DNA of 64,000 nucleotides, taken from contig PLCF01000053.1 in NCBI GenBank assembly GCA_003135555.1, positions 30,131 through 94,130 of the forward strand, given 5' to 3'. A program made the translations under genes and the position numbers. The DNA comes from Vulcanimicrobiota bacterium. Its GTDB lineage: Bacteria > Vulcanimicrobiota > Vulcanimicrobiia > Vulcanimicrobiales > Vulcanimicrobiaceae. Below, one piece after another: positions 30,000-64,000 of the stretch. The first letter of the stretch is position 1. Each line of letters opens with the position of its first letter. The notes below the pieces were generated by a model that searched no databases, was not told where the DNA came from, and saw only the letters and a list, made by a program, of their open reading frames with translations.

Positions 30000-30788
30000 C
30001 TGAAGATCCTCGTCACCGTCAAGCTCGTCCCGGACACGAATGCCGACAAGCGCATCGACCCGGCGACCAAACGCCTCGTCCGTACGGGCGTCGAAACGGT
30101 CCTCAACCCGTTCGACGAGTACGCCATCGAAGCGGCGCTGCAACTCAAAGAGAAGCTCAACGATGGTTCTACCGTGACCATCGTCTCGATGACCAGCCCG
30201 TCGGGCAAAGAGATCGTTCGCAAAGCGCTGGCAATGGGCGCCGATGACGCGGTGATGCTGTGCGACGACGCCGTCGCGGGCAGCGATCTGTGGGGCACGG
30301 CGGTCGCGTTGGCGGCGACGATCAAGACCCTGGGTGCCGACCTGGTGATCACCGGGACGCAGTCGACCGACGCGATCAGCGGCGACCTGCCGGGGATGCT
30401 CGCCGAGAAGCTCGGCATCCCCGGTCTTACCTACGCGCGCAAGCTCGACGTTGCCGACGGGCGCGTGCGAGTCGAGCGCGAGACCGAGACGGGCTACATG
30501 ACGGTCTCCGCCGCGCTCCCGGCGCTGGTGAGCGTGACGAAATCCGCCAACGAGCCGCGTTACCCGTCGCTCAAAGGCATCATGGGCGCCAAGAAAAAGG
30601 AGATCAAGCAGCTCGCGGTCGCCGATCTCGGCTTGACCGTCGCCGTCGGTACCGACGGTGCGAAAGCGCAGCTGACCGATCTCGCCACGCCGCCGGCGCG
30701 CGCAAAGGGTCAAACGATTGCGGCCCCCGATCCCGCAGCGGGTGCCGCGGCGATCGTGCAGTTCCTCAAAGAGCGGAAGTTCCTATGA
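30000..30788 (+). CDS. etfB: electron transfer flavoprotein beta subunit
   Basis: KILVTVKLVPD, NPFDEYAIEAAL, ALAMGAD, NEPRYPSLKGIM; probable CTG start at 30000 after GGAGG. Confidence 0.93.
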   Translation: MKILVTVKLVPDTNADKRIDPATKRLVRTGVETVLNPFDEYAIEAALQLKEKLNDGSTVTIVSMTSPSGKEIVRKALAMGADDAVMLCDDAVAGSDLWGTAVALAATIKTLGADLVITGTQSTDAISGDLPGMLAEKLGIPGLTYARKLDVADGRVRVERETETGYMTVSAALPALVSVTKSANEPRYPSLKGIMGAKKKEIKQLAVADLGLTVAVGTDGAKAQLTDLATPPARAKGQTIAAPDPAAGAAAIVQFLKERKFL

Positions 30789-61850: not shown

Positions 61851-61956
61851 GAAGCGCGCGCAAGCAGACGCCGTGTGGGCCCGAAGGACGGGGACCGGGC
61901 CGTCCGGAAAGGGCAGTTGCCCGAAAGGGGCGATACCCTGGATCGGAGATGCGCAT

Positions 61957-62421
61957 ATGGATCGACGTTCCGCGCTCGTGGTATTGGCTGGACTTCCGGC
62001 GATCGCCGCCCTCCCGCCGCTCCCGGCGCTTGCCGAGCCCCCCGACCCCGCGGTTCGCGCCGCCGCCGCCAAGATACACGCGAGATATCAGAGCGATGCG
62101 GCCTTCAGGGCGCTTGTCGAGCGCGCTCCGTTTGACGCGTTCGCCCAATCCGGCCTTTCAAAAGACATGAGCGCCCGGATCCTCGGCTACGAGATGGGCT
62201 GCACGCGGTTCGCCTGCCCATCGACGACGTGCCGGAACGCGGACGCCATGGCCCCCAAGTTGACAGCCGGAACGGCCCAGACATTCACGCCGCTAGCGGT
62301 GTGCGCGCTGACCTTCGCCGGGAAACCCCCGGCGGGCTTTGCGGAGCGGGCGCACCTTCCGCCGGCGACCGATGTAAAGTCCTGGCGCGCGCTCGGCGGC
62401 GGCGCGAACGCGATGCGCTAA
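61957..62421 (+). CDS. putative lanthipeptide precursor with Tat-like signal, NHLP-like leader and Cys/Thr core
   Basis: RBS GGAG; MDRRSAL...ALA-E; ARYQSDAAFRALVERAP; GCTRFACPSTTC; adjacent to the synthetase. Confidence 0.65.
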   Translation: MDRRSALVVLAGLPAIAALPPLPALAEPPDPAVRAAAAKIHARYQSDAAFRALVERAPFDAFAQSGLSKDMSARILGYEMGCTRFACPSTTCRNADAMAPKLTAGTAQTFTPLAVCALTFAGKPPAGFAERAHLPPATDVKSWRALGGGANAMR

Positions 62422-62476
62422 CGGTTCGCGACCGATAGCCGTCCACGAGATTCTTGCGGCGCTCGGCGCCGACTTC

Positions 62477-64000
62477 GTGGTGGCGCAGTCGCGCGACGGG
62501 ATGTGGATCGCCGTCGAACCGCGTCGCGGCCTCCCTGACGCGGAGGCCGGCTGGAAACTGCACGTCTCCGCCTCGACGCGCACCGCTTTGCCGACGCTGC
62601 GCCTCGCCGTGGCCGTCTTGCAGACGGAGTCGGTCGCGTTCAAGGTCGCCGCTTCGCTGGAACGCCTCGAAGAGTTGAATCACGGCCGCCACAGCCTTTC
62701 GCAAATCGGCAAGTTCGTGACCGTCTACGCCGATGATGCCGCGGCGGCGCGACGGATCGGTTTTGCACTGGCGCGTGCGCTGCGCGGACAGGCGGGACCG
62801 CGCCTGCGCTACGAGCGCCGCGTTGCGCGCGACGCGCCGGTGTGGTACCGGTTTGGCAGCTTTCGGGCCGCGTACGGCTTGAGCGCGCACGGCTCGCTCG
62901 TCCCGCTCCTGTTCGGCGGCGCCGAGCCGATCGCCGATCGCCGGGACGAGCTTGCCGTGCCGACGTGGGCCGAGGCCGACCCGTTCGCAGGCGGCGACGA
63001 CGCGGATCCCGCAGCCAGTGTCATCGGCGGGCGCTTCATGGCACTGCGCACGATGGCGTCGTCGTACAAGACCGACGTGTTCGACGCCGTCGATTTGCAT
63101 GGCGACGGCAAAGCGACCTGCATCCTCAAACGCGCACACGCAGAGACGGTGTGCGATGCGGTTCACGACGCGATCGGATTGCTGCGGCGCGAGCATGACG
63201 CGCTCGAGCGTATCGCCTCGCTGGGGGTCGCGCCCATGCCGCTCGGATTCTTCGAAGCAGGCGGTGACGCGTTTCTCGCGATGACGCTCGAGCCGGGAGT
63301 GACGCTCGATCACTACACCGCCACGTCGCGCGCGCTCGGTCGTCGACTCGATGCCGCCGTGATCGAACGATTCGCCGACACGCTCGCTGCGACCGTCGGT
63401 GCGGCGCACCGGGTCGGCATCGCGCATCGCGATCTCAAAGGGGCAAACCTGATCGTGCGCGACGACGGCGCGCTACGCATTCTCGACTGGGACGCCTCCG
63501 CGGCGCTCGACGATCCCGCGTTTCCGCGCTTGGCGACCTACGGCTACACGACGGGCACTGACAGCCCCGTAGCATCGGACGTGCGCGGCGCCGCAAGCGT
63601 GGTTGCCGCGCTCGCGACGGGGATCGACGCATCTCGGCTGCCGGACCCGGCCCGGCTCGCCGACGCGCTCGATCGCACGCGTGACGATCTCTCCGTGTCG
63701 TTTCGCGCTGCGATCCGCGATGCGCTGACGCAGCCGCAGCAGTTTTCATCCCTGGCTGCCTGGCGCCAGGCGGCGGCCACGCCGCCGCGCTCAGCCCGGT
63801 CGACGCGCGCGCACCACGTTGTTTTCGCGACCGATCGCGAGTTGACGCGCAGCGTGGAGTGGTTGGTCGCGGCTGCGCACGACACGCCTGACGGCGTGGC
63901 GTGGGTCAGCGGTGACCGCGAGCGTTTTGGGGCATCGCTGCGGGATCTCTATGGGGGCGTAGCAGGCATTGCCTTGGTTCTGGACGCGGCCGGGATCGCA
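62477..64000 (+). CDS. class III/IV lanthipeptide synthetase (LanKC/LanL-type lyase-kinase-cyclase), truncated by window end
   Basis: Manual translation, open to 64000: GWKLHVSA, FKV, QIGKFVTVY, WYRFGSF (lyase); ILKRA, HRDLKGANL, DWD (kinase); DLYGGVAGIAL (LanC-like start). First canonical start is GTG 62477. Confidence 0.88.
   Translation, partial: MVAQSRDGMWIAVEPRRGLPDAEAGWKLHVSASTRTALPTLRLAVAVLQTESVAFKVAASLERLEELNHGRHSLSQIGKFVTVYADDAAAARRIGFALARALRGQAGPRLRYERRVARDAPVWYRFGSFRAAYGLSAHGSLVPLLFGGAEPIADRRDELAVPTWAEADPFAGGDDADPAASVIGGRFMALRTMASSYKTDVFDAVDLHGDGKATCILKRAHAETVCDAVHDAIGLLRREHDALERIASLGVAPMPLGFFEAGGDAFLAMTLEPGVTLDHYTATSRALGRRLDAAVIERFADTLAATVGAAHRVGIAHRDLKGANLIVRDDGALRILDWDASAALDDPAFPRLATYGYTTGTDSPVASDVRGAASVVAALATGIDASRLPDPARLADALDRTRDDLSVSFRAAIRDALTQPQQFSSLAAWRQAAATPPRSARSTRAHHVVFATDRELTRSVEWLVAAAHDTPDGVAWVSGDRERFGASLRDLYGGVAGIALVLDAAGIA

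Follow-up and report, generated by a model that had tools for sequence, protein, structure and literature searches.

A predicted class IV-type lanthipeptide cassette from a Vulcanimicrobiota bacterium with a signal-peptide-like segment ahead of the precursor leader

Lanthipeptide biosynthesis is thought to finish with the action of a dedicated protease and an ATP-binding cassette (ABC) exporter. [quoted passage not shown] According to one source, such precursors are typically cut and exported at a double-glycine motif by a C39 peptidase–ABC transporter, and the characterised class IV systems, venezuelin, SflA and two more, have short precursors (PMC9576775). In the accessible part of a lanthipeptide survey, nitrile-hydratase-type leaders are mentioned together with lanthipeptides for class II families only (PMC7268733), and a third article calls Sec signal peptides rare among RiPP precursors and links them to MNIO enzymes (PMC12452194). 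Here, we analysed a 64,000-nucleotide stretch (hereafter the window) that spans positions 30131–94130 of contig PLCF01000053.1 of a Vulcanimicrobiota bacterium; the contig runs on for another 7.4 kb past the window end. Near this end, a gene for a 154-residue protein directly precedes a gene for a lanthionine synthetase. From their sequences, the two genes appear to form a variant of the class IV lanthipeptide cassette, in which a LanL-linked precursor combines a signal-like segment, a leader, a core and a tail.

The synthetase gene begins with a GTG codon at 62477, separated by 55 nucleotides from the stop codon of the precursor gene, and the first 508 of its 841 codons lie within the window (62477..64000, plus strand). 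The gene is intact and stops 1002 nucleotides past the window end. A first-pass annotation of the window had noted an open reading frame (ORF) leaving the window with lyase (GWKLHVSA, QIGKFVTVY and YRFG), kinase (HRDLKGAN) and LanC-like (DLYGGVAG) motifs, and all of these are present in the full-length protein. Pfam recognises RamC_N (E = 4.7e-33, residues 4–172), Pkinase (E = 7.5e-8) and LANC_like (E = 8.3e-29). The NCBIfam LanL model NF038150 gives 439.7 bits (E = 2.4e-131) versus 256.9 bits (E = 4.5e-76) for the LanKC model NF038151, with both scores under the curated cut-offs. In an alignment of 21 homologues, the lyase columns K27, H29, K79 and R125, which we take to be catalytic by reference to OspF/SpvC, are invariant, as are the kinase columns K218, D319, N324 and D337. 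The choice of class, III or IV, which the first-pass annotation had left to the sequence past 64000, is settled by the cyclase domain located there. This domain retains GYAHG, WCHG (C709/H710) and CHG (C752/H753); in the same alignment, H649 is invariant and the C709/H710 and C752/H753 columns are at least 90% conserved. These Cys and His residues are presumably zinc ligands, by analogy with NisC. Since the ligands are kept here, and four class III-like (LanKC-like) relatives in the same bacterial class (L014, L016, L018 and L027) are without them, we class the synthetase as class IV-like. In the PDB, its best relative is 8car_A (E = 9.1e-33), which aligns over the full length, and the next matches are class III LanKC structures aligning with the N-terminal half only. 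Judged from its sequence, the synthetase is a three-domain lyase–kinase–cyclase of class IV type, whose predicted activity would be dehydration of the precursor and thioether formation on it. The enzyme belongs to a LanL clade that is at least 65% identical internally; the next relatives drop to 37%, and identity to LanL/LanKC homologues of other bacterial groups is 27–37%. A close LanL occurs in two of the 385 genomes of the class, and the genome carrying the window (G000) contains only one LanL-like gene.

The precursor gene, P0001 (61957..62421, plus strand; 154 residues plus stop), is preceded by a GGAG ribosome-binding site (61945..61948, plus strand), read directly in the sequence 8 nucleotides ahead of its ATG, and the homologues all begin with M-[DN]-R-[RL]-S. 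The family is very small, comprising seven cluster representatives, one member on a metagenome contig and two cluster mates with more than 90% identity; its precursors are 150–180 residues long. From 5.8 billion clusters, a word-indexed search retrieved six rows, corresponding to the cluster of P0001 itself and five other representatives, and an exhaustive phmmer search over 1.84 billion representatives yielded two real family representatives. Scanning genome contigs with the pattern of the precursor alignment produced 363 matches with zero relatives, and the same scan of metagenome contigs produced one locus. Several further matches were set aside. Three long proteins (P0009–P0011; E = 2e-4 to 8e-4) match through short repeated stretches and were taken as Ala-rich repeat matches. 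The weak match in genome G021 (L004/L007) was taken as spurious, as tblastn finds no LanL and the 68-residue precursor stretch, seen only in L007, has one internal stop and shares its position with a long ORF read from the other strand. The weak match in genome G046 (L005/L008) was treated likewise, with no LanL by tblastn and no precursor match in L008. A Pfam HEAT_2 match over residues 3–57 was rejected because it scores 23.4 against a cut-off of 27.7 on Ala/Leu/Pro-rich sequence.

The first-pass annotation had described this gene as a multi-part reading frame directly upstream of the synthetase, and it resolves into five parts, all on the plus strand, whose mean pairwise identities were taken from an alignment of eight sequences. 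The signal-peptide-like segment, consisting of MDRR, an uncharged hydrophobic Pro-rich stretch and ALA/E, occupies residues 1–26 (61957..62034; identity 0.71). It is followed by a helical leader of the NHLP clan at residues 27–80 (62035..62196; identity 0.63), with the leader motif ARYQSDAAFRALVERAPFDAF at residues 42–62. The core at residues 81–93 (62197..62235; identity 0.43) contains T83-x3-C87 and S89-x2-C92. Next comes a hypervariable Ser/Thr-rich linker with in-frame indels at residues 94–108 (62236..62280; identity 0.18), 15–40 alignment columns long. The conserved tail, or follower, at residues 109–154 (62281..62418) shows an identity of 0.74 over residues 109–146, the highest of all parts. 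Because the part boundaries appear as conservation steps, the layout is more than chance. No relative of the tail beyond the family was found by phmmer among the 1.84 billion representatives. A sortase-type LPxTG reading of the sequence LPPATD was rejected by eye, since its Thr is misplaced and no hydrophobic anchor follows.

The cysteines listed by the first-pass annotation (C82, C87, C92 and C116) and the nine Ser/Thr residues between positions 83 and 119 (T83, S89, T90, T91, T104, T107, T109, T111 and T119) are all present in P0001. The invariant positions of the family include T83, C87, C116, T119, T138 and W143; C82 and C92 are not among them. Nine of the ten family sequences retain the T-x3-C spacing, the remaining one having S-x2-C instead, and nine also carry a second motif, [ST]-x2-C. 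In one subgroup of the family, made up of P0006, P0007 and the protein encoded at L029, we also observed three to five tandem [AQ]-L-T-K-[GA] repeats in the linker, with one Thr per repeat (ALTKGSLTKGALTK; AQLTKAQLTKGGLTKG). Matching DNA occurs in peat metagenome runs of several studies, and contigs of four such runs were compared with the locus. A contig of run X7 matches 61952–62199 and 62278–62717, and 69 other letters replace the 78 between them (residues 82–107), both lengths being multiples of three. Another metagenome contig adds ACA at 62280, and P0035 and P0036, the cluster mates at more than 90% identity, differ from P0001 mainly in the linker. With such in-frame exchanges, the core and linker act like a cassette that varies while the leader and tail on either side are conserved. 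No RNA data sets are listed among the sequencing runs containing the DNA.

The first-pass annotation had likened the leader to those of the nitrile-hydratase-like type, and this relationship was recovered by profile comparison. All seven tested family members match the NCBIfam model TIGR04509 'NHLP-related RiPP peptide' with E values of 0.0072 to 6.5e-6, below its curated threshold, and two tested members match the Os1348 NHLP-clan model NF038399, also below the cut-off. The top Atlas structural row for P0001 is an Os1348 NHLP cluster, with a template modelling (TM) score of 0.55 by that row. Closer to home, three genomes of the same bacterial family (L015/G355, L017/G205 and L020/G348) encode LanL proteins about 30% identical to the present one with the zinc ligands kept, and directly upstream of each lies a short precursor of 97–98 residues (P0012–P0014) consisting of a leader and the core SSCYITCITTCWFTNCVITSIHIS. 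These loci are canonical class IV cassettes. The three short precursors match a hidden Markov model (HMM) of the P0001 family over positions 31–95 (E = 1.4e-3 to 2.3e-2 among 1519 ORFs), and hhalign aligns the P0001 family with them at E = 1.7e-4.

The comparison was widened by scanning all species genomes with the LanL alignment, which gave 73 loci, and by searching these with two precursor HMMs, that of the P0001 family and one built from P0012–P0014. Short precursors with the same leader were found by either or both models in 10 of the 73 loci, in other phyla; the best match to the P0001-family model is a Tengunoibacter precursor (E = 2.2e-7 among 7823 ORFs), and all ten tested short precursors match NHLP-clan models below cut-off. 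LanL loci with NHLP-clan leader precursors thus occur in Chloroflexota, Acidobacteriota, Actinomycetota and others, for example in Chloroflexia, Acidobacteriaceae and Solirubrobacterales. In the joint alignment, the precursors of 75–100 residues start at about residues 27–31 of P0001 and end with a Cys/Ser/Thr-rich core. T83 and C87 of P0001 fall on the first Thr and the first Cys in the cores of P0012–P0014 and are invariant, placing the start of the core at the same alignment position beside a homologous leader. The short relatives possess neither an N-terminal hydrophobic segment nor a tail and share with P0001 the leader and the core start only, so both the signal-like segment and the tail have been added to what is otherwise an ordinary precursor.

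Two of the surveyed loci display unusual precursor arrangements of their own. In Tengunoibacter tsumagoiensis (L086; NZ_BIFR01000002.1, locus 120–2050), one LanL-like gene has at least six precursor genes in tandem upstream of it, and these precursors share an NHLP-like leader ending in …DV[AT]GY, while their short hydrophobic cores differ. In a metagenome-assembled genome of Aestuariivirga sp. (L038:789–1610; JADCDC010000405.1), a single frame of about 274 residues upstream of a LanL-like gene contains three tandem units, each with an NHLP-like leader and a near-identical Cys-rich core (…DCxxxTCRLTxPCGWTVCGKTTNxC). This frame resembles a multi-unit 'poly-precursor' in one polypeptide.

The association of precursor and synthetase extends beyond the window. 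In all three contexts read, namely G000, G044 and the metagenome contig L029, the precursor gene is located immediately upstream of LanL. G044 represents a different family of the class; its LanL is 65% and its precursor about 50% identical to those of G000, and its other neighbours differ. Four further precursor/LanL pairs are tied to shared contigs by identical lengths of their longest contigs, which demonstrates co-occurrence and not adjacency. The pair is rare, with the precursor present in two real cases among 61 relatives. No second precursor was detected in G000, which is 84% complete, by either precursor HMM, nor any other precursor in the G000, G044 and L029 loci. A structure prediction of the complex between LanL and precursor residues 27–154 gave no answer (score 0.00). 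On account of the NHLP-clan leader, the conserved ring motifs, the adjacency in all three contexts and the failure to find a rival precursor in the genome, the 154-residue protein is very probably the substrate of the synthetase, in agreement with the first-pass annotation; this assignment is drawn from sequence comparison.

The N-terminus of P0001 has, by eye, the layout of a signal peptide, with an MDRR n-region, a 21-residue uncharged stretch and an ALA/E or AFA/A site. The pair RR is present in nine of ten family sequences, as is an AxA-type site, and the canonical short relatives lack this segment altogether, so that a conserved signal-peptide-like N-terminus, as proposed earlier, is upheld. 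Between this segment and the leader, no in-frame start codon occurs from which translation could omit the segment and still include the leader. At its end the leader reads E-[ML]-G-[CAV], with no double-Gly motif, and no C39 peptidase (PF03412) was found in the genome at its 84% completeness. TatC is encoded in the genome (161.3 bits), together with Omp85 and LpxC; the latter two are outer-membrane markers, and therefore export would first reach the periplasm. AlphaFold2, run with a seven-row alignment, gives P0001 a mean predicted local distance difference test (pLDDT) value of 49. Only residues 31–80 are helical (pLDDT 63–72), and the core, linker and tail all fall below 50. The folded, protein-sized substrate envisaged in the first-pass annotation is thus not borne out, and because no folded passenger is predicted, the Tat pathway is not demanded. 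We consider the N-terminus a putative export signal for a general pathway, Sec or Tat, and do not decide between the two.

With moderate confidence, we favour a two-gene class IV cassette, in which LanL would modify the precursor in the cytoplasm and a general pathway would subsequently export it. In this scheme, LanL would recognise the NHLP-clan helical leader (residues ~27–80) and would phosphorylate and eliminate Thr83 and Ser/Thr89–91, perhaps along with Ser/Thr residues of the linker. Two small thioether rings, T83–C87 and S89–C92, would be closed, and the invariant Cys116 may form one more ring, a larger one spanning the hypervariable linker. The signal-like segment would then carry the modified peptide over the inner membrane by the general pathway, Sec or Tat, with cleavage after ALA or AFA. 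General export would thereby replace the dedicated exporter and protease, without which the locus stands. The tail may serve as a follower recognition element or, alternatively, as a functional scaffold presenting the variable core and linker.

Several observations weigh against this scheme. P0008, the G044 orthologue, has RL in place of RR and no AxA site, although it is otherwise well conserved and keeps LPPIP; given this member, cleavage or export may not be universal in the family. The hydrophobic stretch contains five prolines, which is unusual. At E ≤ 10, the Tat models PF10518 and TIGR01409 leave all three examined precursor N-termini unmatched, while both match two of two Tat-like controls from the same genome (PF10518, 3.5e-5 and 0.14; TIGR01409, 1.4 and 0.17). 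With genome completeness at 84%, the genes for an exporter or protease could be elsewhere. The NHLP-clan matches of the family all lie under the curated cut-off, with TIGR04509 scores ranging from 16.4 bits for P0001 to 26.1 bits for P0008 against a cut-off of 34, and the hhalign probability for leader homology with the short precursors is just 49%. The LanL score of the synthetase, 439.7 bits, compares with a curated NF038150 cut-off of 650. Finally, the tail exceeds the core in conservation, which is not typical of a RiPP.

Some of these points would be accommodated if the N-terminal hydrophobic segment tethered the peptide to the membrane or formed an additional recognition element within an extended leader, with a product that is cell-associated or released otherwise. 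The stretch is Pro-rich (LPPLPALA) and, at 0.71, conserved above usual signal peptides; P0008 preserves LPPIP without RR and AxA, and neither Tat HMM matches. We nevertheless regard this alternative as unlikely, given the tripartite n/h/c layout with an AxA site in nine of ten sequences and the lack of any other export route at the locus. Moreover, the canonical relatives function without the segment, which makes it dispensable for recognising the leader across the wider family.

The first-pass annotation had gone further than general export and assigned the segment to a true twin-arginine signal, by which a cytoplasmically cross-linked, folded, protein-sized product would be exported specifically by Tat. 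The prevalence of RR in the family and the presence of TatC agree with this assignment. In addition, D-RR-S-A-L resembles Tat-like starts in the same genome such as MADRRSFLG, and the 18-residue hydrophobicity of 1.89 is near that of four Tat-like starts chosen by eye in the genome (1.56–1.82), two of which are matched by the Tat HMMs, and below that of many Sec-like ones (2–3). Cross-links installed before export also fit the logic of Tat; conversely, two rings of 4–5 residues need not block Sec. A script count finds 124 ORFs of G000, a genome of 68% GC, that start with RR and a hydrophobic stretch. Because RR is so common in the n-regions of this genome, RR alone is not diagnostic of Tat. 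Together with the failure of the Tat HMMs on N-termini of the family despite their success on the controls, the RL of P0008 and a predicted structure that contains no folded domain, this renders the specific assignment to Tat improbable, and we do not retain it.

An extension of the same idea, to which we give only a slim chance, is a secreted 'lanthi-protein' of about 130 residues, in which the NHLP-like helical domain and the tail would be kept as a scaffold for a thioether-stapled hypervariable loop (residues 82–108), swapped between strains as an in-frame cassette and exported by Tat after cytoplasmic cross-linking. If true, the 'lanthi-protein' would be a diversified binding or killing module and not a classical leader-cleaved peptide. 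That the 154-residue protein is instead a secreted accessory (an immunity protein, partner or target) with the true short precursor elsewhere would suit the highly conserved tail, the length of 150–180 residues and the incomplete genome, but is very unlikely, as its leader is homologous to those of bona fide short precursors beside related LanL genes, its ring motifs are located exactly at the start of the short-precursor cores, and no other precursor was found in the genome or the three loci.

No protease, exporter or immunity gene adjoins the cassette among the neighbour genes read on the contig past and before it. Upstream, the neighbours include a binding-protein-dependent ABC importer (NMT1-like binding protein, ABC_tran and BPD_transp_1), an OmpR-type regulator and, on the opposite strand, a TauD dioxygenase. 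A functional tie of the cassette to this ABC system was rejected, because the system is of importer type, includes a binding protein and is absent from the G044 locus; the importer, TauD and regulator neighbours are all not conserved at the orthologous locus. Downstream, a tRNA-Asn gene lies 103 nucleotides after the synthetase gene, and a strong terminator-like hairpin is found near it (contig-locus L001, 9185–9212). The region from 65105 on in window numbering (L001 9105–15394) carries the tRNA-Asn gene, followed by a Zeta-toxin-like ORF, DUF695, a glyoxalase and a methyltransferase, which are unrelated genes; the set after the tRNA may be an island inserted at it. At the G044 locus (L006 8416–9358), two overlapping ORFs are situated just upstream of the orthologous precursor gene, and by eye we take them to resemble an antitoxin and RES-type toxin pair.

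Compared with the described class IV LanL systems, the locus is alike in its three-domain zinc enzyme, its single precursor gene directly upstream, its core of Ser/Thr and Cys, and its lack of tailoring genes. It differs in the 154-residue length of the precursor, the signal-like N-terminus, the NHLP-clan leader and the conserved tail after the core. Like NHLP/Nif11-clan precursors, P0001 has a long helical leader in which the same positions are conserved, is encoded beside its maturase and has a hypervariable core; in contrast to them, it has no GG motif, no C39 peptidase was found in its genome, a signal-like N-terminus is added and a tail follows the core. Bufferins and other MNIO precursors likewise combine cytoplasmic Cys chemistry on the precursor with a general secretion signal that requires no dedicated exporter, and some are protein-sized (PMC12452194 and PMC11626156). 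Unlike the present system, they depend on an unrelated enzyme and chemistry, and the bufferin signal replaces the leader, whereas here the signal-like segment precedes a complete leader.

A literature search, outside whose range lay about 1.7 million PubMed Central articles, the subscription literature and supplements, found no work that connects Tat signals with lanthipeptides or RiPP precursors. The same search found nothing relevant on lanthipeptides with a Sec signal peptide and no article naming TIGR04509; within PMC12452194, the word 'lanthipeptide' occurs only in the reference list. In the lanthipeptide survey based on RODEO, the term 'signal peptide' does not occur, and candidate ORFs longer than 120 residues were dropped (PMC7268733). 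Precursors of 150–180 residues are missed in mining as a consequence of this limit. The use of NHLP-clan leaders by a LanL subfamily across phyla, as suggested by the loci compared here, may accordingly be under-reported. The layout of the family, in which a conserved tail stands behind a cassette-like variable core, is one unforeseen by current core-prediction rules. If a general-secretion signal ahead of a complete leader is indeed what the N-terminus represents, for which the MNIO/bufferin family is the only comparable printed case found, it would mean a different export logic for lanthipeptides.

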